From a bacterium (GTDB lineage: Bacteria; Patescibacteriota; Minisyncoccia; UBA6257; 1-14-0-10-44-23), in assembly GCA_030699515.1 (NCBI GenBank), contig JAUYME010000066.1:1-33120 (forward strand): a stretch of 33,120 bases of DNA, given 5' to 3'. Below, piece by piece: positions 1 through 33,039 of this stretch. Made by a program: the position numbers and the translations under genes. Every line of letters begins with the position of its first letter. Position 1 is the first letter of the stretch. The notes below the pieces were generated by a model. It did no database searches, was not told where the DNA came from, and worked only from the letters and a program-made list of their open reading frames with translations.

Positions 1-284
1 GGGTTAGGTACAGGCAGCCGCTGCAGAAGGCGCACCTTCTGCAAGTCAAAGGTCCCACCGCCGCCAAGGCTATGGCGGGCAGGCAAATGTCCCACCGCCG
101 CCAAGGCTATGGCGGGCAGGCAAAGGTCCCACCGCCGCCAAGGCTATGGCGGGCAGGCAAGGGTCAGTGGAAGATTGTGTTTGAAAAACCGCAAGAGTTT
201 ATTGCAAGCGGACAAAGTGCGGTTATTTACGACTTGAAAGGAGAGAGGCTGCTTGGTGGTGGTGTTATTTATAAAGCTCTTTGA
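1..284 (+). CDS. mnmA: tRNA 2-thiouridylase MnmA, C-terminal part (5' end outside window), carrying a 37-codon repeat-derived insert
   Basis: Frame 3 is open from the window edge. VRYRQPLQKA...KIVFEKPQEFIASGQSAVIYDLKGERLLGGGVIY resembles the MnmA C-terminal barrel (RYRQ, GQSAVFY, GGG). Stop TGA at 282-284. Confidence 0.75.
   Translation, partial: VRYRQPLQKAHLLQVKGPTAAKAMAGRQMSHRRQGYGGQAKVPPPPRLWRAGKGQWKIVFEKPQEFIASGQSAVIYDLKGERLLGGGVIYKAL
47..157. repeat. Perfect-phase tandem repeat, 3 x 37 nt (unit caaaggtcccaccgccgccaaggctatggcgggcagg), plus an 8-nt partial 4th copy
   Basis: Copies at 47-83, 84-120 and 121-157 differ at one position. The 111-nt total equals 37 codons and lies inside the mnmA reading frame. 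Visibly GC-rich. Confidence 0.95.
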
Positions 285-3725: not shown

Positions 3726-3762
3726 TGTTTAAATTATAAGGCATTAGCGGCATATAGAAAAT

Positions 3763-3803
3763 AAAAAAAACGGGCCGTGGCGACAGTGAAGCCGCCACAG
3801 CCC
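3763..3803 (-). terminator. Intrinsic terminator (13-bp stem plus U8)
   Basis: Minus strand GGGCUGUGGCGGC-UUCAC-UGUCGCCACGGCCC followed by UUUUUUUU. The two wobble pairs would be C-A mismatches on the plus strand. Confidence 0.75.
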
Positions 3804-3995
3804 TGATGAGTGCGCCCGGTTGGGGCGATCGGAGTCCCTACCCTCTTCTATGCTGCCTTCGTTTGGGAGCGGGGCAGTCGTTGTCCCTACTGAAGCTGCC
3901 ACAGAGGGCCATTGCGAATAGAAACCCAATTGCGGCAGTCCCCAGCGAAACCAGAAAGACTGTAAGCACGGGAACTCCAGGGGACCGGGACTTAT
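3763..3995 (-). ncRNA. Unclassified GC-rich structured RNA (independent sRNA or cis-leader), ending in an intrinsic terminator
   Basis: GC-rich block in an AT-rich spacer. 5'/3' end complementarity (GGAGUUCCC/GGGACUCC, CCCGG/CCGGG). Extended -10 (TGGTATAAAT) near 4000. The terminator has G-U wobbles valid only on the minus strand. Confidence 0.5.
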
Positions 3996-4084
3996 TTATA
4001 CCATTGAATGGCAGTTAAGAAAAGCTGGCTTTGGGGAGATATGCTTGCTTTGGATTTTTGGCGTGATATTCTTGTTTTATTGAT

Positions 4085-6224: not shown

Positions 6225-6385
6225 ATAGTGATCCCGCTCTATAAATTTCTACTTAATCATATACATAGGGAGGTCTATATCGGCTCTAGCCTTGGCTAGA
6301 CACCTGCGACCACCCACCTAGTTCATACTAGAACTAAGAGAGCGGGGTTCCCTTTCGGGGGAAAAGCGGCGAGAGCCGCTTTTGA
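6225..6385 (+). other. Structured region with closing stem CCCGCUCU/AGAGCGGG, inner hairpins and a terminal AAAAGCGGC-GAGA-GCCGCUUUU hairpin
   Basis: Complementarities read directly from the sequence. Strand and function unknown. Lies upstream of the first ArsR gene. Confidence 0.3.
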
Positions 6386-6393
6386 ACTTGCCT

Positions 6394-6425
6394 CTTGTCC
6401 ATAACTCTATAGAGTTATGGACAAG
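6394..6425. promoter_or_regulatory. 32-nt perfect palindrome cttgtccataactcta|tagagttatggacaag overlapping the ArsR start codon
   Basis: Perfect dyad. ATG 6417 lies in the right arm. Confidence 0.7.
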
Positions 6426-6749
6426 CCGAGTGTTTTTAGGGTAGACATGACAGAAAGTTCAAGAAAAAATTTTTACAGGTTGGAACGCACTGTTAGGGGC
6501 TTTTCTAATCATAGGCGAATTGAGATTTTGCTGCTGCTTCGAGAGCAGAGGAATATTTCGGTGTCGGATATTGCCAAGGAGTTGAATATTTTGCTCAAGA
6601 CTGCATCAGCTCATGTAAACCGCTTGGCACTGGCTGGTCTGGTTTGGAAGCATTCTGATGGCTCAAGTGTAATTTGTGAGTTAAGCGAACTAGGAGAGAA
6701 GACCGTGGATTTTCTAGAGGATATTGCAGAGAAGTTCAATAAAAAGTAG
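6417..6749 (+). CDS. ArsR/SmtB-family winged-HTH regulator
   Basis: FSNHRRIEILLLL...ISVSDIAKEL...SAHVNRLALAGLV, the typical ArsR HTH. Confidence 0.75.
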   Translation: MDKPSVFRVDMTESSRKNFYRLERTVRGFSNHRRIEILLLLREQRNISVSDIAKELNILLKTASAHVNRLALAGLVWKHSDGSSVICELSELGEKTVDFLEDIAEKFNKK

Positions 6750-6756
6750 CCCTTAT

Positions 6757-6788
6757 CTAGTCCATAACTCTATAGAGTTATGGACTAG
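6757..6788. promoter_or_regulatory. 32-nt perfect palindrome ctagtccataactcta|tagagttatggactag (second copy, with compensatory change)
   Basis: Same dyad as 6394-6425 except tt..aa -> ta..ta at mirrored positions. Lies 8 nt after the ArsR stop. Confidence 0.7.
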
Positions 6789-6828
6789 ATGGCTTTTGTT
6801 TTGAGAGCTTTTGTATTAGATTAGAGCG

Positions 6829-8631: not shown

Positions 8632-8702
8632 GTTATAGGTAATAGTTTATAGGTTATAGAGAAAACAAGAAAGGATAGGGAATAGTAAGAAAAATAAAGC
8701 CA

Positions 8703-8875
8703 CCACAATCGCACTATGCCGCGGCACAGTGCGATTGTGGGGAGTGGTGTGGTGGGTGGTTAACAAGGTGGTTAACCGCTATAAAGGCTAGAAAGCCTCA
8801 TGAATACTGGGCTTTTGGGCTGTTTAAAAAAGAATTATATAATTTATTATGTAATAAATTATATAATTCTTTTTT
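8703..8875. repeat. Composite module A: hairpin 8703-8740, GGTGGTTAAC x2 (8755-8764, 8767-8776), aagcctcatgaata, A/T-only palindrome 8826-8875
   Basis: Homologous in order and sequence to 32120-32358. The hairpin stems differ by compensatory changes. Confidence 0.8.
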
Positions 8876-8951
8876 TTGGGAAGTCTTATTAAAAAGCGGA
8901 ACCGGCGGCCCTGGAGAGGGTCGCCGGCGCGCGGATGGAGGGTGGGGCTAG

Positions 8952-9188
8952 CTAGCAAACAGAGTGTCCCTTGTTGATCCACTCGTCGAGCTCTTGCTGT
9001 CGAGGGTCGAAGTGGCAGGTGCCTCCGACCTCGCGCCGACAGATAGGGCAGTTTTGCATGTGCTCTATCAGTCGCCGACCAGCAGGATCTGTCGTCTGCT
9101 CGATGGTCTTGGCCGATGGCAATCTGGGGAAGTAGAGGATTTCTCCTTCCGTCGGTCGCCGATCTTGGGGAGAAGGCTGGTCCACCAT
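8952..9188 (-). CDS. GC-rich mini-ORF (78 aa), CPIC...C.H motif, unknown function
   Basis: SD GGAGA lies 6 nt before the ATG. GC-rich third codon positions. A hairpin plus U-tract follows. The overlapping ORFs 8824..9201 and 8964..9347 look like off-frame translations. Confidence 0.55.
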   Translation of the reverse strand: MVDQPSPQDRRPTEGEILYFPRLPSAKTIEQTTDPAGRRLIEHMQNCPICRREVGGTCHFDPRQQELDEWINKGHSVC

Positions 9189-9778
9189 GGATGGTCTCCA
9201 TTATTCCAGAACCGTCTGGAGCCGTCTTTTCGGATGCGTGAAAAGAAAAACGCCCGCTCGGGAAGCGGGGCTTATCTAGATTCTACTTATAAACAAGGCT
9301 CGCCTCTCGATCAGGAGTTATTAATAATACTAATAATGTTTAATTGAGGAAGGCTCATGCGGTTGATGTTAGCAGATTTATTGATAGCGTTCAACTGCTT
9401 GATTTTTGCGTGAATGTGTGCTATAGTGTTTTTGTAATGAGTATAGATTTACTTTGCGGGATATCGACGAAGTAGATTTCATTCAATTTGTGGCAAAGAA
9501 GACCTTTCGGGGTCTTTTTTGTTTGTTTTGTATAGCCCCTCTCCCTCCATAAAACTTCTTTATTCAAGGCAAAGTTTCTCTACTATTTTCTTCATTAGAA
9601 ATGCTCGCCGATACACTCATTGGTATCGCCTGTGCTTTCCAATTTCGAAAATACTATGAAAATTGCCTTGCCTAAAATATTTCATGAAGGCAAAGGGGCT
9701 TTGCTAATAAATAACGAAGGAAGAGTGACAAAATTTCAGTTTGACAGCGTTTAATATAGAAGTGCTATAATTTCATAA

Positions 9779-9876
9779 CCTAGAGTGTTGTGAGGGCTGT
9801 CGCTAGCGTATACTCATTAAACACAAATTGTATTGGAGCTCATACGTGACGGCCCTCACAGAATTCTAGGTTTTTT
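9779..9876 (+). promoter_or_regulatory. Promoter-proximal long hairpin plus U6 (sRNA or attenuator) upstream of murB
   Basis: TTGACA 9741-9746 and TGcTATAAT 9763-9771. Then CCUAGA..UGUGAGGGCUGUC...GACGGCCCUCACA..UCUAGG UUUUUU, ending 15 nt before the murB ATG. Confidence 0.55.
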
Positions 9877-9891
9877 GTTACTCTATTTTAT

Positions 9892-14164: not shown

Positions 14165-14423
14165 AGAGAAAATAAAGAAAAAATTGACAGCGGATGGGTA
14201 CGCAACGATTTACGAGTATGACGACGGCCCGGGAGAAAAATTTTCAGAGCATAGCCATGAAGGTGAGCAGCTGATGTTTATCATGGCTGGAGAAATGAAA
14301 GTAGAGATGAACGGCAAAACTTACAGATTAAAGTTTGGGGACAGTTTGCTTTTTCCAGCAAATGCTTTGCACAGTGCAAAGATTGGTGCTCAAGGTTGTA
14401 GCTATATTGTTGGAGAAAAATGA
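14154..14423 (+). CDS. Cupin-domain protein
   Basis: HSHEGEQLMFIMAGE...ALHSA, the cupin two-motif pattern. Confidence 0.65.
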   Translation: MENREKIKKKLTADGYATIYEYDDGPGEKFSEHSHEGEQLMFIMAGEMKVEMNGKTYRLKFGDSLLFPANALHSAKIGAQGCSYIVGEK

Positions 14424-15157: not shown

Positions 15158-15201
15158 CACTGCATATACCGTAATTCCGCGGAATTACGGTATATGCAGT
15201 G
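15158..15201. promoter_or_regulatory. 44-nt perfect palindrome abutting an extended -10 box (TGgTATAAT 15200-15208)
   Basis: cactgcatataccgtaattccg|cggaattacggtatatgcagtg. Likely operator/promoter of the second ArsR gene. Confidence 0.7.
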
Positions 15202-15221: not shown

Positions 15222-15509
15222 ATGGCAGAGGATAGGCAAAAGTATAGAAATGTTGAGCGAGTGATGAAGGGAGTGGCGAATCATCGGCGGGCTCAAATCC
15301 TTTATCTATTGAAAGAGGAGCCGGAGCTTTCGGTAGCTGAAATAACCAAAAAGTTAGGAGTAAATTTTCGAACGGTTTCTGATCATACGAAGAAGCTGGT
15401 TCATGCAGGTTTAGTAATGAAAAGATCGGATAGCGTGAGTGTTCGGCACAAACTTACAGATTTAGGACATAAGGTTTTTGAGTTTATCGTAACCTACATA
15501 AAAAACTAG
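15222..15509 (+). CDS. ArsR/SmtB-family winged-HTH regulator (paralog of 6417..6749)
   Basis: VANHRRAQILYLL...LSVAEITKKL...SDHTKKLVHAGLV aligns with the first ArsR protein. Confidence 0.75.
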   Translation: MAEDRQKYRNVERVMKGVANHRRAQILYLLKEEPELSVAEITKKLGVNFRTVSDHTKKLVHAGLVMKRSDSVSVRHKLTDLGHKVFEFIVTYIKN

Positions 15510-15513
15510 CTTC

Positions 15514-15547
15514 CATATACCGTAATTCTGCAGAATTACGGTATATG
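15514..15547. promoter_or_regulatory. 34-nt perfect palindrome, variant of 15158-15201 with a compensatory centre change (ccgcgg -> ctgcag)
   Basis: catataccgtaattctg|cagaattacggtatatg, 5 nt after the ArsR stop. Confidence 0.7.
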
Positions 15548-15621
15548 CAGAAGCCGGGAGGTGGAAAGGGTGTATAATAGAAGACCCTAGGTATTATTAT
15601 TAATCTTATTAGTCATTATTT

Positions 15622-16620: not shown

Positions 16621-16915
16621 TTTTTTTGTGCTTTGCCTTGACCTGCGAGACTTTCGTTTGGATGAAGTATCGCCAAGTCAAGGTAGCTTTATTAAAGTTG
16701 TAATAAATGCGACTTTTCTACAGTAGCTGACGATTGAAACTAGCAACTCTTTCCTTGCTATGTTATTCGCTAAAAATCTTTAAGGTGATAAAATGGAATT
16801 GTAGTTTCAAGAAAAGTTGAATATCCCGATATGATAGCTTCTAGTGCCTTTGGCACTAAGCATCAAACGGGATGCTCAATTTTGTAGATAAATCTAAGAT
16901 TTAAACAAAATTGGC

Positions 16916-18763
16916 ATGTGTGGAATTGTTGGATACATAGGAAAGAAAAGGGCAATGCCGGTTTTGCTGGATGGTTTAAAGCGCTTGGAATATCGCGGCT
17001 ACGATAGTGCCGGGGTGGCGATTTTGGAAAACACTGAAGTTAAGGCATTTAAAAAAGTTGGGCGGGTGGAAAATTTGCTTAAAGCGATTGAGACAGCGGG
17101 GGAGTTGGACAGCATGGCCCATATTGGTGTAGCGCATACCAGATGGGCAACTCATGGAAAGCCCAGCGAGGAAAATGCTCATCCGCACAGTGATGAATTT
17201 GGTAAGTTTTGGTTGGTGCACAATGGAATTATTGAAAATTATGAGGAACTAAAGAAAGAGCTTTCAGAGAGCGGGGTAAAATTTAGTTCGGAAACGGACA
17301 CCGAGGTTGTAGTGCAGCTGATTGCTAAAGAAATGGAAGCTGGACTAAGTTTTGAAGAGGCTTTTCGAGTGGCGCTTAAAAAACTTCGAGGAGCTTATGG
17401 AATTGTAGTAATGAGTGCAGACGAGCCGGAATATTTAATGGCTGCAAGAAATTCAAGTCCGCTTTTAATTGGAGTAGGAGATGGGGAAATGATAGTAGCG
17501 TCTGATGCAAGTGCCGTTGTGGGTACAACTAAAAAAATTGTTTATTTGGAAGATGGGGAGTTGGCAAAAGTTTCAGCAGATGGGCTAAAGATTGAGCTTA
17601 TTGCCGAGGCTGGTAAAGAGTTGAAGCGCGAGGCAGAAACTGTAGATATGGATGCAAGCGAAATAGAAAAGGACGGACACGATTTCTTTATGCATAAAGA
17701 AATTTTTGAAATTCCCAGCGCTGTTTTAAATGCGGGAAGGGGAAGGTTTATTGCCAGTGAGGGTTTGGTGAAGTTTGGAGGTATTGAAGAAATTAAAAGC
17801 AAGTTAAGGGATATTGATAGAATTATTATTTCCGCTTGCGGCACCGCAGCCTATGCTGGCTTACTGGGCGAATATTTTATTGAAGAGCTGGCCGGAATTC
17901 CGGTGGAAGTGGAAATTGGCTCTGAATTCAGATACAGAAGCCCTGTATTTACGGAGCGCACTGCTTTAATTGTTGTTTCTCAATCTGGGGAAACTGCAGA
18001 TACATTGGCGGCGGTGCGAGAAGCAAAGGAGAAGGGGATTTTAGTTTTAGGTATTGTTAATGTAGTTGGCTCTACAATTGCGCGCGAAGTGGACTGTGGA
18101 ATTTATACCCATGCCGGTCCGGAAATTGGAGTGGCCTCTACAAAAGCTTTTATTTCTCAGCTTACGGTACTTTTACTTTTGGCTATTTATTTGGGCAGAC
18201 AGCGAAATTTATCTGTAAATGAAACAAAGGAAATTTTGGCAGATTTAGAGAAGCTTCCTGAGCTTTTAGATTCTATCTTGCATCGAGAAAAATTGGCAAA
18301 GAAGCTAGCAAAGAAATATAAAGATTTTACCAGCATGGCTTTCTTGGGTAGAAAATATAGTTTCCCTGTGGCGCTGGAGGGAGCTTTGAAATTAAAAGAA
18401 ATTTCTTATATCCATGGAGAAGGTTATCCGGCAGGAGAATTTAAGCATGGGCCAATTGCGCTCCTTGATGAAAAATTTCCGGTTTTCTTTATATTGCCTA
18501 GCGATGATGTTTACGAAAAAAGTAAATCTAATTTGGAAGAGATAAAAGCAAGGCAAGCGCCTGTAATTGCCATTGTGACTGAAGGAAATAAAGAATTAAT
18601 GAGAATGGCTGATGATGTTTTGGAAATCCCCAAAATAGCAAATATTTTAAGCCCGTTTCTTTCTACGCTTTGGACTTATCTTTTTGCTTACCATGTTGCG
18701 GATATGAAAAATTTGGACGTGGATAAGCCTAGAAACTTAGCTAAGTCTGTGACCGTCGAGTAA
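16916..18763 (+). CDS. glmS: Glutamine--fructose-6-phosphate aminotransferase
   Basis: N-terminal MCGIVGY, two SIS domains, C-terminal KPRNLAKSVTVE. Confidence 0.95.
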   Translation: MCGIVGYIGKKRAMPVLLDGLKRLEYRGYDSAGVAILENTEVKAFKKVGRVENLLKAIETAGELDSMAHIGVAHTRWATHGKPSEENAHPHSDEFGKFWLVHNGIIENYEELKKELSESGVKFSSETDTEVVVQLIAKEMEAGLSFEEAFRVALKKLRGAYGIVVMSADEPEYLMAARNSSPLLIGVGDGEMIVASDASAVVGTTKKIVYLEDGELAKVSADGLKIELIAEAGKELKREAETVDMDASEIEKDGHDFFMHKEIFEIPSAVLNAGRGRFIASEGLVKFGGIEEIKSKLRDIDRIIISACGTAAYAGLLGEYFIEELAGIPVEVEIGSEFRYRSPVFTERTALIVVSQSGETADTLAAVREAKEKGILVLGIVNVVGSTIAREVDCGIYTHAGPEIGVASTKAFISQLTVLLLLAIYLGRQRNLSVNETKEILADLEKLPELLDSILHREKLAKKLAKKYKDFTSMAFLGRKYSFPVALEGALKLKEISYIHGEGYPAGEFKHGPIALLDEKFPVFFILPSDDVYEKSKSNLEEIKARQAPVIAIVTEGNKELMRMADDVLEIPKIANILSPFLSTLWTYLFAYHVADMKNLDVDKPRNLAKSVTVE

Positions 18764-18770
18764 GGATGTG

Positions 18771-18837
18771 GACCCCCGCGTGCTTCGCGCGCTGCACCAG
18801 AGCCGACGAGGCAAGCTCGGGCTCGGTGCGGGGCGGG
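18771..18837. repeat. GC-rich two-hairpin element, copy 1
   Basis: gaCCCCCGC-[GCGUG cuucg CGCGC]-u-[GCACC a GAGCC ga CGAG gcaag CUCG GGCUC GGUGC]-GGGGcggg. Homologous to 19337-19406 and 32844-32912. Confidence 0.85.
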
Positions 18838-19168: not shown

Positions 19169-19336
19169 AGTGTGTATGTTGTTAATTTCTAATGAATACT
19201 AGTAAAAGCATAACATTATTATAGAATAATGCTCGTTTTGCAGTGGAAAAATAGAGAGTAATCGCGAACATCGCGAATTGCGCAAAATATCGCGAATAAA
19301 ACTAAGGCGGGGAAAATTGGGTTATTCCAAGGTTGA

Positions 19337-19461
19337 GACCCCCGCATGGCAAGCCGTGCTGCACCAGAACCAACGAAGTAAATTCGGGCTCGGTGCGGGG
19401 CAGGACTTGGTAGCTTGCTGGTGTGTACTTAGTGATGGGCTGGATAGTTTTTCAATCGGTC
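19337..19461. repeat. GC-rich two-hairpin element, copy 2 (core 19337-19406) plus a ~55-nt tail, bounded by 19-nt direct repeats
   Basis: Core homologous to copies 1 and 3. Direct repeats ttattccaaggttgagacc at 19322-19340 and 19462-19480. Confidence 0.85.
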
Positions 19462-19953
19462 TTATTCCAAGGTTGAGACCGTGGACTGCAAAGATCTAGT
19501 TTCTTTGATTTGAGGATTGTCCGGGTTGGAAGTCAATACAATAGAAATTTGCACAGCAGTGGTAGAGGTGCCGCTAAATTCCTGGAAAGTTAGGCTGTCT
19601 AGCGTAACATCGGCGCTTGTTAGCGCTTCTTGCGAATTTGACCCCAGCTTTCTGTAGATTGTTCCTGCTGAACTGTTGATTATAATCGGGTCGGTGCTTG
19701 ACACTCCGGTAGTAATTGTAAGGGTTGAACTGCTGACAGATATTGATTGACCCTGGCGGACGTCGGTTTTGATAACATTCATTACAAAGCTTAGCTCACT
19801 GCTTAGTTTATAGCCTGAGCTTTGATGCTGCTGAACTCTAAGAATTGTAAATAGTATTCCTGAAAGAAGGCTAAGAAGGATAACGGTAAGGCCAAGGTAG
19901 ATGACCAGCTCAATGAAAGAAAGCCCCCGCGTGCTTCGCGCGCTTTTAAACAC
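19462..19953 (-). CDS. Prepilin-type (type IV pilin-like) pseudopilin; start uncertain (GTG 19953 or ATG 20028)
   Basis: G|LSFIELVIYLGLTVILLSLL is a class III signal/methylation motif. The stretch upstream of the Gly is repeat-derived sequence. Confidence 0.7.
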   Translation of the reverse strand: MFKSARSTRGLSFIELVIYLGLTVILLSLLSGILFTILRVQQHQSSGYKLSSELSFVMNVIKTDVRQGQSISVSSSTLTITTGVSSTDPIIINSSAGTIYRKLGSNSQEALTSADVTLDSLTFQEFSGTSTTAVQISIVLTSNPDNPQIKETRSLQSTVSTLE

Positions 19954-20044
19954 TAATGCACGAATGGGCGCGAATCCTCTAATAAGAAATGAAGGTCCTT
20001 TCGTTTTATTCGGTGATTGATGAATCATTGGTGTATTAGTGTTT
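19948..20044. repeat. MITE-like inverted-repeat element E1 (termini AAACACTAATGCAC ... GTGTATTAGTGTTT)
   Basis: Homologous, in reverse orientation, to 29112-29227. Shares a 19-nt identical end, cattggtgtattagtgttt. Confidence 0.75.
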
Positions 20045-20131: not shown

Positions 20132-20836
20132 ATGACGGATAGTAATGAAACCGGAACACAGGTAAAAGACTCAATGCTTGAAGAGATGGCGCAGGCCGGT
20201 CTTTTGTTTGGGCGGAAAAAATCAAAGACTAATCCAAAAATGAAGGATTATGTTTTTGCGAACCGAAACGGCTTTGAGATGTTTGATTTGGAAAAAACCG
20301 CCGCAAAGCTTGAGGAAGCTAAGGCATTTTTGGCTTCCGTGGCAAAGACCGGGAAAACTATTTTGTTTGTTGGTACTACTCCTGCGGGCCAAGAAGTTAT
20401 GAAGGAAGTTGCCGAAGGCTTTAAGGCTCCTTATGTAACCCATAGGTGGCTTGGCGGTACTTTAAGTAATTTTGAAACAATTTCTTCACGGCTTAGGTAT
20501 TTTATTAAACTTAAGGCCGACAAAGAATCCGGAAAACTTGAAAAATATACCAAGAAGGAGCGGACAAAATTTGATAAAGAGCTGGAAAGATTAGAGAGGC
20601 TTTTCGGCGGTCTTGAAGAATTAACTGCTATGCCTGCCGCACTCATTGTGGCAAATACAGATGCGCATTCAATTGCAGTAAGAGAGGCAAATATTGCAGG
20701 AGTGCCGGTAATTGGAATTACAAATTCCAGCACCGATCCTGAGGGCGTAGATTATCTGATTCCGGCAAATGACAACAGTATTTCTAGCGTGCGTTGGATT
20801 GTTGAGCAATTAGCGCAGGCGTTAAAGACGAAGTAA
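20132..20836 (+). CDS. rpsB: 30S ribosomal protein S2
   Basis: MLEEMAQAGLLFGRKKSKTNPKM... and HRWLGGTLSNF. ATG 20132 preferred over the ORF-track start. Confidence 0.9.
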   Translation: MTDSNETGTQVKDSMLEEMAQAGLLFGRKKSKTNPKMKDYVFANRNGFEMFDLEKTAAKLEEAKAFLASVAKTGKTILFVGTTPAGQEVMKEVAEGFKAPYVTHRWLGGTLSNFETISSRLRYFIKLKADKESGKLEKYTKKERTKFDKELERLERLFGGLEELTAMPAALIVANTDAHSIAVREANIAGVPVIGITNSSTDPEGVDYLIPANDNSISSVRWIVEQLAQALKTK

Positions 20837-21003
20837 GCGAAGTAGACGAAGTAGGCGAAGTAAGCGAATAAACGAAGTAGCAAATAAACGAAGTAGGCGA
20901 AGTAGGCGAAATTAGAATTAACTTTGAACTATTTGGAATATGGCGACCCTTCGACAAGCTCAGGGTGCTCATATTTCTAGATAAATCAAAGATTTATAGA
21001 AAT

Positions 21004-21447
21004 ATGGCAGCAGAAGATGTAGCAAAGCTTAGAGAACAAAGCGGTGCAGGGATAATGGACTGCAAAAATGCTCTTGAAGAGGCGGGTGGCGATTTTGATA
21101 AGGCTTTGGAAATAATTAAAGAAAAGGGTCTTGCGAAAGCAGAAAAGAAAGGGGATAGAGAAGCCGGCGCGGGATATTTGGAGAGTTATATTCACCAAGG
21201 CAGAGTTGGTGTTTTGCTTCATGTAAATGCAGAGACCGATTTTGTTACCAAGAACGAAGACTTTCGGGAAATGGCAAAGAATATCGCTATGCACATTAGC
21301 GCAATGATGCCTTCCAGCGTAGAAGAGCTTATGGAACAGGATTATGTTAAAGACCCAAGTATGACTGTGGAGCAATACGTTAAGAGCGTTATTGGAAAGA
21401 TTGGAGAAAACATTAACGTTGTCAAATTTGCTTGCTACGCTGTTTAA
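21004..21447 (+). CDS. tsf: Elongation factor Ts, short form
   Basis: VAKLREQSGAGIMDCKNALEEAGGDFDKA (UBA-like N-terminus) and NAETDFV. Only about 147 aa. Confidence 0.85.
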   Translation: MAAEDVAKLREQSGAGIMDCKNALEEAGGDFDKALEIIKEKGLAKAEKKGDREAGAGYLESYIHQGRVGVLLHVNAETDFVTKNEDFREMAKNIAMHISAMMPSSVEELMEQDYVKDPSMTVEQYVKSVIGKIGENINVVKFACYAV

Positions 21448-21842: not shown

Positions 21843-21925
21843 GCACAGGTAGCGAAGTGGTCAAACGCGGCTGACTGTAGATCAGCTGGCTTACGCCTTC
21901 GGGGGTTCGAATCCCTCCCTGTGCA
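21843..21925 (+). tRNA. tRNA-Tyr(GUA), class II (long variable arm)
   Basis: Acceptor GCACAGG/CCTGTGC. Anticodon arm GCTGA-CTGTAGA-TCAGC. Variable stem GGC-TTAC-GCC. T-loop TTCGAAT. Confidence 0.85.
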
Positions 21926-21926
21926 C

Positions 21927-21970
21927 AAAAGATTAACGGCTCACACATATGTGTGAGCCGTTAATCTTTT
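21927..21970. terminator. 44-nt perfect palindrome, AAACGGCTCA-family hairpin (copy 2), flanked by A4/T4
   Basis: aaaagattaacggctcacacat|atgtgtgagccgttaatctttt. Confidence 0.75.
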
Positions 21971-22043
21971 CAAAAAGTAGGCGACCCCGCATGCACTGAT
22001 TTCTCCTGTGCATTGTTGCGGGGCCGGGGGGGTGCGTGAGGAC

Positions 22044-22328
22044 TTACGTCGCCTCATCCTCATGGGGGTCCTCCTTGCTAGCAACGAACTCTTGGTTGTA
22101 GGCAGTGTAGACGGCCTTGACCATTGTCCAGGCATCTTCCTCGGAGCCGGCCCGCTCAACTACCCTCTGACTGTTCGGAGAGTACTGATGGAGCATGATG
22201 AGCGCCCAAACGACGATGTAGTCGTTGGTGATCGTGTGCTCCATACCGTCAACGCACACCTTCATGCCAATGAGCTCTTGCAGGCGAGAATAGACCGCGC
22301 CGGTTTCGGGGCGCTTACTGTCGTTCAT
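22044..22328 (-). CDS. GC-rich mini-ORF (94 aa), unknown function
   Basis: SD GGAGA lies 5 nt before the ATG. GC-rich third positions. Own hairpin plus U-tract terminator (about 21975-22025, minus strand). Confidence 0.65.
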   Translation of the reverse strand: MNDSKRPETGAVYSRLQELIGMKVCVDGMEHTITNDYIVVWALIMLHQYSPNSQRVVERAGSEEDAWTMVKAVYTAYNQEFVASKEDPHEDEAT

Positions 22329-22405
22329 CGGGATCTCCTATCGGATATCCTTTTTCCGTTGCTTTATAAATAGCACTTTTGGACTGCTGTGTCTATGTTT
22401 TTTGT

Positions 22406-22482
22406 TGGAGCCACCTGTCGGATTCGAACCGACGACCTACTGTTTACAAAACAGTCGCTCTAACCAACTGAGCTAAGGTGGC
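22406..22482 (-). tRNA. tRNA-Thr(UGU), CCA encoded
   Basis: Reverse complement folds as GCCACCT TA GCTC..GAGC G ACTGT TTTGTAA ACAGT AGGTC GTCGG TTCGAAT CCGAC AGGTGGC T CCA. Confidence 0.9.
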
Positions 22483-22579
22483 AAACTATGAGCACTAGTA
22501 TAGCGAAAAAGTTTCATTATGCAATCAATTCTGCTAATAACAATATGATATACTAGTAAGGTAGAGCTTTGTTGTCAGT

Positions 22580-23164
22580 ATGTTGGATAAAAATCAGTTA
22601 GAGCAAATGTATGCTGAGGAAGGAAAGTCTATGCAGGAGATTGCGGATTTGTTTGGTTGTTCGCTTAACAAGGTGAGATATTGGATGGATAGGCTGAAGA
22701 TTAAAAGGCGCAGCATAAGTGATGCTATTTATTTGAGAAGCAATCCCAATGGGGACCCGTTTAAATTCAATAAGCCCAAAACGATTGCGGACGTAGAGCT
22801 TCTTGGGTTGGGCCTAGGGCTTTATTGGGGCGAGGGAACAAAGGCAAGCAAGAGTTCTGTACGACTTGGAAATACGGACCCTAAACTAATTTTGAAATTT
22901 GTTGAGTTTCTTGAAAGAATTTTTTCAGTAAACAGAGGTGATATGAAGTTTGGTTTGCAGATTTTTTCTGATATTTCGCCTAAGAAAGCACTGGACTTTT
23001 GGGCTGAAAAGCTTAGAATAAACAAATCTCAATTTTACAAAGTTATTGTTACGCAGTCTGGCTCAATAGGGACTTACCGAAAGAAGTCTGAGTACGGAGT
23101 TTTGACTGTGTATTACAACAATACGAGATTGAGAGACATGTTAGTTGATATGTTGCCGACGTAG
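22580..23164 (+). CDS. HTH plus single-motif LAGLIDADG homing-endonuclease-like protein (free-standing)
   Basis: N-terminal HTH (SMQEIADLFGCSLNKVRYWM). LAGLIDADG-like LLGLGLGLYWGEGTK, followed by KLILKFVEFLERIF and GVLTVYYNN. Stop TAG 23162-23164 lies inside the tRNA 5' exon. Confidence 0.7.
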   Translation: MLDKNQLEQMYAEEGKSMQEIADLFGCSLNKVRYWMDRLKIKRRSISDAIYLRSNPNGDPFKFNKPKTIADVELLGLGLGLYWGEGTKASKSSVRLGNTDPKLILKFVEFLERIFSVNRGDMKFGLQIFSDISPKKALDFWAEKLRINKSQFYKVIVTQSGSIGTYRKKSEYGVLTVYYNNTRLRDMLVDMLPT

Positions 23165-23441
23165 CTCAGGGGTAGAGCACTTCCATGGTAATTCGCTAGA
23201 ATTTGCCCATTAGCGCCGAAATGCGCTTTTTGTATCCCGAATAACGGTTAAAGGCCTTAAGCGAGGCTCAGACCGTGGCGTTTTGCCTGCCTGCCGGCAG
23301 GCAGGCGCCCGAACGACTGACAAGGGACTACGTACTCTTTTGAGCGTAGAAGATACAGTCTAGCCTCTCTATAAGCTTTTTATGAAATGAGAGTGTAAGC
23401 GAAGGAAGGGGTCGCGAGTTCAATTCTCGCCGTCGGCTCCA
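23155..23441 (+). tRNA. tRNA-Thr(GGU) interrupted by a group I intron after anticodon position 36; CCA encoded
   Basis: Exon 1 (23155-23189): GCCGACG TA GCTC AGGGGTA GAGC A CTTCC ATGGT. Exon 2 (23402-23441): AA GGAAG GGGTC GCGAG TTCAATT CTCGC CGTCGGC T CCA. Confidence 0.8.
23190..23401 (+). mobile_element. Group I intron (212 nt, no internal ORF)
   Basis: P1 GGU|AAUUC-GCUA-GAAUU(U)GCC with U-G at the splice site. P2 AGCGC/GCGCU, P3 UCCC/GGGA, P4 ACGGU/ACCGU, P5 GGCCU/AGGCU, P7 GACUG/CAGUC, P8 CUACG..CGUAG. J8/7 AAGAUA. Terminal G at 23401. Confidence 0.8.
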
Positions 23442-23884: not shown

Positions 23885-24046
23885 CACGAATTTTCTCTAA
23901 ATTTTCAAACTGCTAAGTGTGGAAAATTTAGCTAGAAAAATCTGTGCCCCGCCACCACTTGATGATCTGCGCGGGCTAATATTGACTTTTATTATTTTTT
24001 GTGTTATTTTTTGTTTACTCAGATTTCCAAAAGAAGGAGGTGTTTG

Positions 24047-24211
24047 ATGGGTAAGTATTGCGTAAACTGCAAACATCTGCTTCGCAAGGAGGCAGATGGG
24101 CCACGGTTCAACGTTTGGTACAATCTTCTGTGTAGGAAGGCTCCCCGAGAAGTCGCGGTTGATCCCGTGACTGGCGAGGCTGGCTTCGAGGCTGTAAACT
24201 CCTTGGGTTAG
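24047..24211 (+). CDS. GC-rich Cys-rich mini-ORF (54 aa to an in-frame TAG; the frame stays open 25 more codons to TAG 24287-24289)
   Basis: Perfect SD AAGGAGGTG lies 4-5 nt before the ATG. CVNC...C...DPVTGE. After the TAG: RYFTEDAFQNCRDVNQGECEMWEPQ. Confidence 0.55.
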   Translation: MGKYCVNCKHLLRKEADGPRFNVWYNLLCRKAPREVAVDPVTGEAGFEAVNSLG

Positions 24212-24443
24212 CGCTACTTCACAGAAGACGCCTTCCAGAACTGCAGAGATGTGAACCAGGGAGAATGCGAGATGTGGGAGCCTCAATAGGCTCTGCATCT
24301 CAGCTATGCGTCACCTGCTAGAAGTGGTGAAATAGGGAAAGTTTAACCCAGCGCGGAACCCCGGTGTCTGAAAGGATGTTGGGGTTTCATGGTTTTTAGA
24401 AACAGATCTTGGTTTGAATTTCCTCCATGATGCCCTGCTAAAT

Positions 24444-24756: not shown

Positions 24757-24895
24757 GCCGTTTTGGGTTAAAATAGGGCATTCCTAAGAGTAATCGCTAA
24801 AATCGCGAAAGTACACAAAAAATCGCGAAAAAGATAAAGACGCATAAGACTAAGGAGTAATCGCGAAAAACGCGAATTGATTCAAAATATCGCGA

Positions 24896-25285
24896 ATGGA
24901 AGGCAAAGACCAGAAAATAGAGAGGGGTGAGCTGCAGGCTCTAGTAAAGAAGAGAGATAGCCATGTTAGCCGTCTTTTCTACATGATGCTAGAGTTCTTT
25001 TTAATTTTTGGATTGCCGGCTCTTGCGGCATTTTTTGGTGGCAGGGCGCTAGACTCTGCGCTTGGAACAGGAAAGTTATGGCTTATTATTTTTCTGATAG
25101 CTGCATTTGTTCTGTCTTGGGTAATAGTGGTGCTTAGGGTAAGGAAAATTACAAAGGAGCTGAAAGTGCTGGATGCTAGAATTAAAGAAATTAGAGAATC
25201 CCGTAAAACCGCAACAGCAATGAATGCTGGCGGCCACGGGACTAACTTAAATCAAGATTTAAAAGGAGAAGAAAAGAATGTTTGA
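24896..25285 (+). CDS. AtpZ/AtpI-like small membrane protein preceding the atp genes
   Basis: Two TM helices. Position directly before atpB, with an 8-nt overlap. Confidence 0.5.
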   Translation: MEGKDQKIERGELQALVKKRDSHVSRLFYMMLEFFLIFGLPALAAFFGGRALDSALGTGKLWLIIFLIAAFVLSWVIVVLRVRKITKELKVLDARIKEIRESRKTATAMNAGGHGTNLNQDLKGEEKNV

Positions 25286-26172: not shown

Positions 26173-26403
26173 ATGGAAACAGCAGGAATGTCTGTAGAAG
26201 CAGCAAGTATGATTGCAAAGGGGCTAATTGCTCTTGCAATGGTGGGAACCGCTGCCGGTGAAGGTTACGTTATCGGTAAGGCTCTTGAAGCCATTGGACG
26301 AAACCCAGAGGCTGGAAGCTCTATCTTTGGAAAAATGATTATCGGTGTGGCCATGGCTGAGTCTACAGCTATTTACGCATTGGTGTTGTTTTTCGTCATC
26401 TAG
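26173..26403 (+). CDS. atpE: F0 ATP synthase subunit c
   Basis: Hairpin proteolipid with GRNPE loop and AMAESTAIYALV carboxylate helix. Confidence 0.9.
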   Translation: METAGMSVEAASMIAKGLIALAMVGTAAGEGYVIGKALEAIGRNPEAGSSIFGKMIIGVAMAESTAIYALVLFFVI

Positions 26404-26458
26404 GAGTAATCGCTAATATCGCGAACGGGGGAGGTAATATCGCGAATAAAACAAAAAC

Positions 26459-26941
26459 GTGCAAGAAGTACTAGGAAAAATTGGATTTGATTGGCATTTA
26501 GCCATTGTAAACTTGGTGAATGTATTCATTATTTTTCTGGTACTAAAAAAGTGGGCTTTTGGGCCAATTCAGAACATTATTGATGAGCGAAAGAAGGAGG
26601 TAGATGCAAGTTTGCAGTCTGCGCAAGATGCGCAAAAGCAAAGCGAGATGGCAGAGCAAGAGCGGGAAAAAACCATTGCTAAAGCTAGAAAGGAGGCACA
26701 GGGAATTTTAGAAACTGCCAACGAAGAAAGCAAGGGTATTGTTGAAGAAGGAAAGCTGAAGCTTTCTAAGGAAAAAGATGAGATGCTAAAGAAGGCAAGC
26801 CTTGAGATAGAAGCAAAGAAAAAGGAAAGTGAAGACAAGCTAAAAAGTCAGGCATCCGTCCTTATTACTTCTGGAATTAAGAAAATTCTTAAGGAAGAGG
26901 TGGATAGGGAGATGAACAGTCGCATTATCAACAAAAGTTGA
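26459..26941 (+). CDS. atpF: F0 ATP synthase subunit b (GTG start)
   Basis: N-terminal TM, then a long charged coiled coil. Position in the operon. Confidence 0.8.
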   Translation: MQEVLGKIGFDWHLAIVNLVNVFIIFLVLKKWAFGPIQNIIDERKKEVDASLQSAQDAQKQSEMAEQEREKTIAKARKEAQGILETANEESKGIVEEGKLKLSKEKDEMLKKASLEIEAKKKESEDKLKSQASVLITSGIKKILKEEVDREMNSRIINKS

Positions 26942-32039: not shown

Positions 32040-32119
32040 ACAATTAGCATGTAGTAAGTAGTAAGCAGAAGGCGAAGACCAAGGCAAAGACAAATGCTAA
32101 GAAAAGAGGGGGGCGAGCC

Positions 32120-32358
32120 CCCACAATGCTGTTATGCCCAGGCATAACAGCATTGTGGGAAGTGGTTAGCCCGTCCAGCGCACTTCCTTCGGCCCCGCTC
32201 AAGATAAACAAGGCAGGCAGGGTAAACGGGGTAGGCTAGGTGGTTAACTGAGTGGTTGACTGCTTGGTAGAGTGCTTAAGCCTCATGGATAGAGGGGTTC
32301 TAGTCGATTTGGAAAAGAATTATATAATTTATTATATAATAAATTATATAATTCTTTT
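32120..32358. repeat. Composite module B: hairpin 32120-32159, GGTGGTTAAC/AGTGGTTGAC (32239-32248, 32251-32260), aagcctcatggata, A/T-only palindrome 32313-32358
   Basis: Same order as module A (8703-8875), with an extra ~65-nt GC-rich insert after the hairpin. Confidence 0.8.
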
Positions 32359-32362
32359 TTTG

Positions 32363-32408: not shown

Positions 32409-32476
32409 AAACTTGGCAATAAATTGTTAGTATTTAAGTGTTCCTCGAAAATTTCACGACCACGGAAGGAGAATGG

Positions 32477-32677
32477 ATGCAGGAGCAGAAAAGCGCTGTG
32501 GACCCCATGCGCCTCAAGGGGCAGTGGGTGAGCTGTAGGGACCAATGTCGCCCACTCTTCGTTCGCGAAGTGGGTGGCGGTTCCAACCCGCTCGGGCTGG
32601 CTGAGGATGAGCTGGGCAAGGTCATCCTCTGGTCGCCACTGAAGAATGTGGACATCCCCACCGATCTGGGCGTCTGA
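32477..32677 (+). CDS. GC-rich mini-ORF (66 aa), unknown function
   Basis: SD GGAAGGAG lies 5 nt before the ATG. GC-rich third positions. Weak local similarity (C....REVGG....P....EL) to the 8952..9188 product. Confidence 0.5.
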   Translation: MQEQKSAVDPMRLKGQWVSCRDQCRPLFVREVGGGSNPLGLAEDELGKVILWSPLKNVDIPTDLGV

Positions 32678-32679
32678 CG

Positions 32680-32843
32680 CTCACACGGAAGCCACAACTT
32701 CCGGCGCTAGGCGCCGGTACGCAACTTCCCGGGGGTCGCCGTATCTGCGGCGACCCCCAGACCCCATAGCCCTTGTAGCTCCCGCCCGTTGCAAAGTAAT
32801 GGGCGAGGCTCGCCCAGCAGCAAAGCTGCTTCGGGCGGCAATG
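32680..32843. other. Chain of GC-rich hairpins, including a second Y-shaped unit (CCGCCC [GGGCGA ggc UCGCCC][AGCAGC aaa GCUGCU] GGGCGG)
   Basis: ggaagcc-acaa-cttcc, ggcgc-tag-gcgcc and gggggtcgccg-tatct-gcggcgaccccc are read directly. All ORFs here look like off-frame noise. Confidence 0.5.
32769..32781 (+). other. Duplicated fragment of the tRNA-Arg 5' end (gcccttgtagctc versus gcctttgtagctc at 32965-32977)
   Basis: 12 of 13 nt identical, same orientation, 196 nt upstream of the intact tRNA. Confidence 0.6.
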
Positions 32844-32912
32844 GACCCCCGCGCGCTTCGCGTGCTGCACCAGAACCAACGAGGCAAGCTCGGGTTCGGT
32901 GCGGGGCAGGAC
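32844..32912. repeat. GC-rich two-hairpin element, copy 3
   Basis: gacccccgcgcgcttcgcgtgctgcaccagaaccaacgaggcaagctcgggttcggtgcggggcaggac. Confidence 0.85.
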
Positions 32913-32964
32913 TCAATAGCCATTAGCCCTGATGTTGTTTGTATGCTTTGATGCGCGTGAATAT

Positions 32965-33039
32965 GCCTTTGTAGCTCAATGGATAGAGCAGTCCCGTCCT
33001 AAGGGAAAGATGTGGGTTCGATTCCTACCAAGGGCACCA
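32965..33039 (+). tRNA. tRNA-Arg(CCU), CCA encoded
   Basis: GCCTTTG TA GCTC AATGGATA GAGC A GTCCC GTCCTAA GGGAA AGAT GTGGG TTCGATT CCTAC CAAGGGC A CCA. Confidence 0.85.

Follow-up and report, generated by a model that had tools for sequence, protein, structure and literature searches.

Four GC-rich mini-ORFs with Shine-Dalgarno sites in a Paceibacteria-like genome: candidate small genes of foreign origin

The DNA studied here, called the window, is the whole 33,120-bp contig JAUYME010000066.1 of a metagenome-assembled genome at NCBI (GCA_030699515.1, locus tags Q8Q32_). It carries four small open reading frames (ORFs), hereafter the mini-ORFs ORF1 to ORF4, each in a GC-rich island of its own and each preceded by a Shine-Dalgarno (SD) site, which nearly all core genes of the window lack. 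Our preferred reading, held with confidence only a little above even, is that the four ORFs are real, very small genes, horizontally acquired as mini-cassettes from one or several GC-richer, SD-using sources. The case is best read as a clear small-scale example of orphan genes of atypical composition, brought in by ordinary horizontal gene transfer.

The compositional anomaly of the four mini-ORFs is real and statistically solid. All four were found where an earlier note on this DNA had placed them, and they are, as claimed there, rich in G/C-ending codons, with a GC content of 0.53-0.62 and a GC content at third codon positions (GC3) of 0.58-0.76, against 0.34-0.47 and 0.30-0.46 in 30 core genes. 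The codon comparison with core genes that the note had proposed as a check therefore puts the GC3 of the mini-ORFs far outside the core range. GC of the whole window is 0.428. In the mini-ORFs, the surplus is ordered GC3, then GC1, then GC2, with position 2 low (Table 1). Three-base periodicity is strong in the frames of ORF1 and ORF4 only, and weaker in ORF2; for ORF3 it is significant over an 80-codon frame, and not over the 54 codons of the ORF alone (p = 0.11). The GC-rich sequence of the islands leaves several frames open on both strands, and the same pattern is absent from these other long open frames. Because the surplus GC sits at codon positions 3 and 1, and not 2, this is what a GC-rich mutational background imprints on protein-coding DNA, and it argues against structured RNA. 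The islands are unrelated to one another at the DNA and protein levels, and are thus not copies of one mobile element.

The second anomaly concerns translation initiation. Duplex energies with the 16S tail were scored against the canonical anti-SD sequence, which may not be the organism's own. On this scale the median of the core genes (n = 32) is +0.5 kcal/mol and only two of them reach -6 kcal/mol, namely atpB (-8.7) and the gene at 14420 (-6.4), leaving 30 of 32 core genes without an SD site; the difference from the mini-ORFs is significant (Mann-Whitney, p = 0.001). The SD sites of all four mini-ORFs had been described as strong, which is right for ORF3 and ORF4 (-13.0 and -8.8 kcal/mol), whereas the two GGAGA sites are moderate (-7.3 and -6.4). 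Likewise, the sequence upstream of core genes, said to be made of A and T only, does contain some G or C, but it has no SD-like purine motif. About 22% of all ATGs in the GC-rich islands reach -6 kcal/mol by virtue of composition, so that the probability of four out of four by chance is about 0.003.

Table 1. Coordinates of the mini-ORFs and of associated features in the window (aa, amino acids; nt, nucleotides; tRNA, transfer RNA; GC1/2/3, GC content at codon positions 1, 2 and 3; p, chi-square test of periodicity).
Feature	Position	Strand	Description
ORF1	22044..22328	-	94 aa; GC 0.56; GC3 0.75; GC1/2/3 0.58/0.36/0.75, p = 4e-7; NCBI hypothetical protein MDP3881109.1
ORF2	8952..9188	-	78 aa; GC 0.58; GC3 0.66; GC1/2/3 0.62/0.46/0.66, p = 0.02
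ORF3	24047..24211, open frame to 24289	+	54 aa; GC 0.53; GC3 0.58; 80-codon frame GC1/2/3 0.58/0.40/0.62, p = 0.01
ORF4	32477..32677	+	66 aa; GC 0.62; GC3 0.76; GC1/2/3 0.67/0.42/0.76, p = 1e-4
SD of ORF1	22334..22338	-	GGAGA, 5 nt before ATG; anti-SD duplex -7.3 kcal/mol
SD of ORF2	9195-9199	-	GGAGA, 6 nt before ATG; anti-SD duplex -6.4 kcal/mol
SD of ORF3	24034-24042	+	AAGGAGGTG, 4 nt before ATG; anti-SD duplex -13.0 kcal/mol
SD of ORF4	32464-32471	+	GGAAGGAG, 5 nt before ATG; anti-SD duplex -8.8 kcal/mol
Hairpin after ORF1	21982..22026	-	17 nt past stop; -27 kcal/mol, z = -3.0; U-run about 6 nt downstream of stem
Hairpin after ORF2	8896..8932	-	Intrinsic-terminator-like; -25 kcal/mol, UUUUU directly after
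Hairpin after ORF3	24355..24388	+	Terminator-like, 15-bp stem; 144 nt past TAG stop
Promoter-like site of ORF3	23982-24010	+	TTGACT-17-TATTTT, upstream of ORF3
tRNA-Tyr	21843..21926	+	Left border of the ORF1 island (I2)
Palindromic terminator	21927-21970		AT-rich, native type, directly after tRNA-Tyr
tRNA-Thr(UGU)	22406..22482	-	Same direction as ORF1, 77 nt upstream
Promoter-like sites	22516-22578	-	Upstream of tRNA-Thr(UGU)
Tail of the ORF4 island (I4)	32678..32925	+	Non-coding, about 65% GC; ends just upstream of tRNA-Arg (32965-33039)
Module of about 250 nt, copy 1	8700-8876	+	After lepA
Module of about 250 nt, copy 2	32110-32361	+	After atpC
Palindromes at first regulator gene	6393-6425 and 6757-6789		Flanking 6417-6749
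Palindromes at second regulator gene	15158-15201 and 15514-15550		Flanking 15222-15509

The window comes from a Paceibacteria-like member of the candidate phyla radiation (CPR/Patescibacteria). This placement is based on atpA, whose nearest relative among GTDB species representatives is in a Candidatus Paceibacteria genome (68% identity), and on the 194-aa helix-turn-helix (HTH) protein adjoining ORF1, whose orthologues are 52-67% identical in 80 metagenome contigs, several of them from groundwater-type sites going by the record names. A distant Paceibacteria relative, the sole one obtained when genome contigs were scanned with atpA, gave no useful synteny. Many core genes of the window have a TATAAT a few bases upstream of their ATG and look leaderless. 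In 42 relatives, TGnTATAAT lies 6-9 nt before the ATG of the HTH gene and an SD site is almost never present, so that at this gene the clade is leaderless or SD-poor. The clade appears largely to use leaderless or SD-less initiation. A literature search on SD usage in CPR bacteria returned nothing usable.

Neither the four mini-proteins nor the island DNA are present in 81 loci of related organisms (551 kb). When the properties of the mini-ORFs were combined and applied alike to all loci (ORF length 50-130 aa, GC exceeding the locus mean by 0.10 or more, raised GC3, anti-SD energy no weaker than -6 kcal/mol), the 33 kb of the window gave three matches and the 551 kb from relatives gave none. 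Such ORFs are therefore peculiar to this genome and do not characterise the clade. Two of the islands were also recovered in an independent assembly: in run SRR13727534, a 4176-bp stretch of Logan contig L161 across the ORF3 island (I3) and a 6348-bp stretch of Logan contig L165 across the ORF2 island (I1) match the window at 100% identity, flanks included in both cases. In a second NCBI assembly, GCA_034372645.1, the murB contig is 99.9% identical and stops short of any island. The compositional junctions of the islands lie in AT-rich, native-type sequence and not within tRNA genes.

Folded by AlphaFold2 without alignment, the product of ORF1 gave a predicted local distance difference test score (pLDDT) of 76, unusual for a sequence that is not a protein, and a predicted template modelling score of 0.66; the model is laid out as a helix, a beta-hairpin and three helices (H-E-E-H-H-H). 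ORF1 probably encodes a folded alpha/beta domain. Compared by Foldseek with PDB and BFVD, the model had no significant match, the best E-values being 0.35-0.77. Small helix-turn-helix or repressor-like proteins were considered as fold relatives and rejected, their matches being a faint scatter in that same range of E-values. ORF4 predicted in the same way gave a pLDDT of 52, which is uninformative.

The ORF1 island lies between tRNA-Tyr and tRNA-Thr(UGU). The spacer between these two genes varies among relatives (L086-L160) from 7 to 552 nt, and its long versions hold unrelated small ORFs of 46-108 aa, for which reason the site reads as an insertion hot spot. Two of these ORFs, on the minus strand, have an AAGGA or GAGG motif before their ATG; other versions of the spacer contain a GC-rich GGATTCGAA...CCTGCCTGCCGGCAGGCAGG element. 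By eye, no hairpin is evident in the 77-nt spacer that separates tRNA-Thr(UGU) from ORF1, and cotranscription of the two is possible.

Close by, tRNA-Thr(GGU) (23155-23441, plus strand) carries an insert of 212 nt, which interrupts it after anticodon position 36. It was seen by ARAGORN with the intron option only, and missed by default ARAGORN and by Rfam. In relatives this tRNA gene follows the HTH gene directly, at the same place, and is uninterrupted. As in group I introns, U is the last base of the 5' exon and G that of the insert, which folds to -74 kcal/mol (z = -2.7); no group I model of Rfam matches it. It contains the palindrome GCCTGCCTGCCGGCAGGCAGGC, which is also found in tRNA spacers of relatives.

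The earlier note had also stated that at least three of the mini-ORFs are followed by a terminator-like hairpin and that three of the four sit next to tRNA genes. Both statements hold, the hairpins being those after ORF1, ORF2 and ORF3. Two of the islands lie beside tRNA genes; the other two, those of ORF2 and ORF4, each come directly after a copy of a native module, repeated in the window and about 250 nt long, which consists, in order, of a GC hairpin, GGTGGTTAAC...GTGGTTAAC, AAGCCTCATG, and a 48-nt AT-rich perfect palindrome with a T-run. The module may represent a small RNA, a terminator, or a site favoured for insertion. Downstream of ORF4, the tail of the island has strong hairpins at 32687-32729 and 32731-32758 with no U-run, one copy (32842-32910) of the D1 repeat described below, and no reading frame with a GC3 > GC2 periodicity. 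ORF2 has Cys and His residues at H43, C47, C50, C58 and H59. ORF2 and ORF3 probably encode small Cys-rich metal-binding proteins. Between the ORF2 island and murB, a long AT-rich geneless stretch (9300-9890) contains promoter-like and terminator-like sites on both strands.

ORF3 may no longer be intact. Its TAG stop (24209-24211) is followed by 25 further open codons that retain the GC periodicity (0.54/0.35/0.69, p = 0.04), and because the frame past the TAG stays open and periodic, ORF3 is probably an 80-codon gene with a nonsense mutation, and probably already inactivated by it. We also considered TAG as a sense codon, the frame then extending to a TAA 9 nt before the terminator; this was rejected, as the added segment has AT-rich third positions (by hand count).

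From the observed composition, periodicity, signals and distribution we infer an origin by transfer, and the following scenario for its route, and for the transcription, translation and any function of the mini-ORFs, is conditional on it. The donor would be one or more genomes of roughly 55-62% GC with SD-led translation, and the recipient a Paceibacteria-like CPR bacterium with mostly leaderless or SD-less initiation. Each arrival would have been a self-contained mini-cassette of about 0.35-0.5 kb, made of an SD site, an ORF and usually its own hairpin terminator. Uptake is plausible, as the presence of a ComEC gene on the same contig provides a route for foreign DNA. Insertion would have occurred by illegitimate recombination at a permissive intergenic spot, either beside a tRNA gene or just past the native terminator module, positions at which it would do little harm. 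Once there, ORF3 might be expressed from the resident promoter-like site and ORF1 by read-through of the upstream tRNA transcript, and the mini-ORFs would be translated via SD:anti-SD pairing.

Several results weigh against such an import. None of the four ORFs yielded a homologue or a donor. ORF1 matched only itself among 5.8 billion clustered proteins, and a full HMMER search of 1.84 billion representative proteins revealed no real homologue beyond ORF1 itself; four extra matches were discarded as spurious, being long tandem-repeat translations with scores inflated by 4-8 matched stretches. Queried singly against a large protein collection, ORF3 found only its own product, P0006, on Logan contig L161. 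ORF2 and ORF4 were searched there only in a concatenated query with ORF3, which gave no matches yet missed the exact ORF3 product, so the orphan status of ORF2 and ORF4 is less secure than that of ORF1 and ORF3. Nothing meaningful was found for the four ORFs in Pfam, PHROGs, PADLOC or NCBIfam (for the last two, including the peptide of a fifth island, I0, described below), nothing for them in sequence searches of PDB, nothing for ORF1, ORF2 and ORF4 among IMG/VR viral contigs, and no match by tblastn in phage records (each ORF) or plasmid records (concatenated query).

No sign of mobility was found either. No integrase was detected in Pfam scans of 20 larger ORFs, a few small ones being left out, or in precomputed families on L161 and L165; a simple consensus scan for attC (RYYYAAC...GTTRRRY) was negative in five islands on both strands; the islands are not flanked by a direct repeat or target duplication longer than 7 nt; and there is no duplicated tRNA 3' end, the tRNA-derived 9-12-nt k-mers found elsewhere corresponding to the T-arm motif common to tRNA genes. 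To these negatives must be added the moderate strength of the GGAGA sites, an energy that 22% of island ATGs equal by chance, the size of the sample (32 core genes in 33 kb of genome), the lack of a 16S gene in the window and in all 166 fetched loci, the absence of a recognisable promoter before ORF2 and ORF4, each with a terminator just upstream, and the in-frame TAG of ORF3, which may be decaying. The sensitive homology and structure checks that the earlier note had proposed thus led to no donor and no taxonomic best match, and to a fold for ORF1 and not for ORF4. Its proposal of import from a GC-richer, SD-using donor is thus supported in part, by composition, periodicity and absence from relatives, whereas no donor, homologue or mobility signature was found.

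Foreign DNA need not be functional, and the islands could be junk: fragments, for instance of a host or neighbour, taken up by competence, inserted by accident, and now decaying. The TAG of ORF3, the position of ORF2 and ORF4 behind terminators with no promoter-like site, the GC-rich sequence devoid of coding signal in the ORF4 island tail and in the fifth island, the presence of ComEC, and the fact that neither homologues nor conservation could be demonstrated are all in line with this. However, random pieces of 0.4 kb should mostly be internal gene fragments, whereas here a complete ORF comes with an SD site and, in three cases, a hairpin terminator; three of the four frames are intact, and the predicted fold of ORF1 is confident. 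We regard functionless remnants, the main rival, as unlikely. A native origin is less likely still: lineage-specific genes would be kept in a GC-rich, SD-bearing form by selection, for instance on mRNA stability or through an SD-dependent translation channel of their own. Such genes would have company in atpB and the gene at 14420 with their SD-like sites, in the GC-rich intergenic elements that the genome does possess (D1 repeats, the fifth island), and in the AAGGA or GAGG motifs of hot-spot ORFs in two relatives. On the other hand, GC enrichment at synonymous positions is what the mutational bias of another genome leaves, and selection on RNA structure would not produce it; moreover, relatives have no orthologue, large protein collections have none for ORF1 and ORF3, and comparable ORFs are nil in 551 kb of related DNA.

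The remaining two explanations question the genes or the contig itself. It is very improbable that the islands are GC-rich structured RNAs or repeat elements, in which the ORFs would be chance open frames of stop-poor sequence. The many open frames on both strands, the genuine GC-rich structured D1 repeats of the window, the non-significant periodicity of the 54-codon ORF3 and the poor folding of ORF4 would fit, but no frame other than those proposed for ORF1 and ORF4 has strong periodicity, that of ORF2 being weaker, a correctly spaced SD precedes four ATGs out of four, ORF1 folds at a pLDDT of 76, and the islands match no family in Rfam, even at E <= 5. Least credible of all, in our opinion, is a chimera of assembly or binning that joined in a co-occurring GC-rich genome, for instance through conserved tRNA sequence. 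The contig does come from a metagenome-assembled genome and three islands adjoin tRNA genes, which are classic chimera points. However, the two Logan contigs are identical to it across whole islands, the junctions avoid the tRNA genes, and four islands would need eight precise joins, each leading back to the same genome.

Among known systems, phage morons are the closest analogue in organisation. These were reportedly described by Juhala, Hendrix and colleagues in 2000. Like a moron, each mini-ORF would be a small autonomous single-ORF unit with its own signals and terminator, placed between unrelated genes and deviant in base composition. They differ in their setting, the housekeeping genes of a CPR cell's chromosome and not a phage or prophage, and in that a promoter is recognisable for ORF3 only. 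The islands lie apart from one another, at 8.9, 22.0, 24.0 and 32.5 kb, always with housekeeping genes on either side, and there is neither intI nor an array; next to them are lepA, murB, tsf, tRNA genes, L33, pterin dehydratase and the atp operon, and no phage family was matched. Because these surroundings are cellular and not those of a phage genome, membership among the morons fails. Genomic islands and islets associated with tRNA genes have in common with our case the atypical GC, the neighbouring tRNA genes and a hot spot that varies among relatives; unlike them, the present islands measure 0.35-0.5 kb with one gene each, and have no integrase, att-type tRNA 3' duplication or direct repeats. 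Integron or solitary attC cassettes are similar in being small, with an often orphan and perhaps promoterless ORF followed by an imperfect hairpin, but the mini-ORF islands lack attC-type ends, an intI gene and an array.

Two further comparisons bear on the genes rather than on their carriers. In SD-poor Flavobacterium and other Bacteroidota, the anti-SD is sequestered and rare genes such as rpsU carry an SD site. There too, a few clear-SD genes are found in a largely SD-less genome, raising the question of when and how they are translated. However, the SD gene is in that case a conserved, native, regulatory ribosomal-protein gene, whereas the mini-ORFs are compositionally foreign orphans; these bacteria offer a functional parallel for the translation question and not a family to join. 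ORFans resemble the mini-ORFs in being short, in lying in variable regions and in having no detectable homologue in very large databases; the composition of the mini-ORFs differs in pointing outside, and not to de novo birth in a 43% GC genome.

As for the other genes of the window, Pfam confirmed ComEC, aspS, ndk, murB, glmS, rpsB, tsf, L33 and the epsilon subunit of ATP synthase, while lepA, SecA, atpA, and atpE with the other membrane-sector atp genes are named from source annotations and precomputed Pfam matches. The gene names of the earlier note are borne out in this way, by Pfam for aspS, ndk, murB, glmS, rpsB and tsf and by the annotations or precomputed matches for lepA, atpA and atpE. 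The ComEC channel (PF03772) and its metallo-beta-lactamase domain are in two overlapping ORFs, 456-1877 and 1864-2721 on the plus strand, which is either a split gene or a frameshift. The glmS, rpsB and tsf genes have a common 5' element (…TAGATAAATCnAAGATTTA…AAA.ATG), at 16870-16916, 20219-20242 and 20963-21009. This element ends at what are likely the true starts of the three genes, which places the starts of rpsB and tsf downstream of the TTG and GTG of the mechanical ORF list.

Other repeats and elements were encountered. The D1 repeat (about 70 nt, GC-rich) is present in three copies, 71-91% identical, at 18769-18837, 19336-19404 and 32842-32910 on the plus strand, with the same three-stem fold in all three and three compensatory pair changes. 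Neither Rfam nor the related loci contain a match to it. An exact copy of its first 21 nt, in reverse complement, is found at 19924-19944, inside the 5' end of the minus-strand gene 19462-20028, which we take to be prepilin-like from our own reading of its sequence. The fifth GC-rich intergenic island (GC 0.55, 3740-4010) lies between divergent genes. Its minus strand contains GGAG, 5 nt and a GTG from which a hydrophobic peptide of 43 aa (VLTVFLVSLGTAAIGFLFAMALCG...) is read, with a perfect intrinsic terminator after it (3772-3803, -29 kcal/mol, z = -6.2). Because the peptide frame has no GC periodicity by codon position, this island could encode either a small membrane peptide resembling type I toxins or a non-coding RNA.

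At the start of the contig, three tandem copies of a 37-nt GC-rich unit (44-165, plus strand, 111 nt in total) keep the reading frame of the gene that runs off the contig, in whose C-terminal region they lie; the copies are translated in three different frames. This gene, ending in ...GQSAVIYDLKGERLLGGGVIYKAL, is presumably mnmA-like. Two genes of ArsR/MarR-type winged-helix regulators, 6417-6749 and 15222-15509, are each bracketed by near-identical perfect palindromes of 33-44 nt, which are likely operator and terminator pairs. Clusters of a GAGTAATCGCGAA / ATATCGCGAA motif, at 19252-19314, 24784-24896 and 26400-26464, precede a number of transcription units, the start of the atp operon among them, and this motif is probably a common operator or promoter element. 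The spacer downstream of ndk (6229-6352) has a sub-threshold match to 6S RNA (24.5 bits, E = 0.33); it, as well as the geneless stretch 9300-9890, may hold unannotated small RNAs.

A life attached to other microbes is generally assumed for CPR/Patescibacteria, and to our knowledge hosts have been identified for very few Paceibacteria-like lineages. Foreign genes that keep the translation signals of their donor are a possible clue to the partners with which such cells exchange DNA, and the mini-ORFs would provide a natural test of whether a mostly SD-less cell can still use SD sites. A bolder proposal, which we offer as speculation and consider improbable, is that the mini-cassettes were captured via ComEC as complete small genes from the host of this episymbiotic CPR bacterium, or from a phage of that host, and persist because their SD leaders use a separate translation channel. 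If this were true, the host would have left its molecular fingerprint in the SD-using composition of about 55-62% GC, and one minimal cell would have two classes of translation, SD-led and leaderless, that can be controlled separately. As it stands, the finding is mainly of value as a starting point for studies of the complete genome and of the metagenome from which it came.

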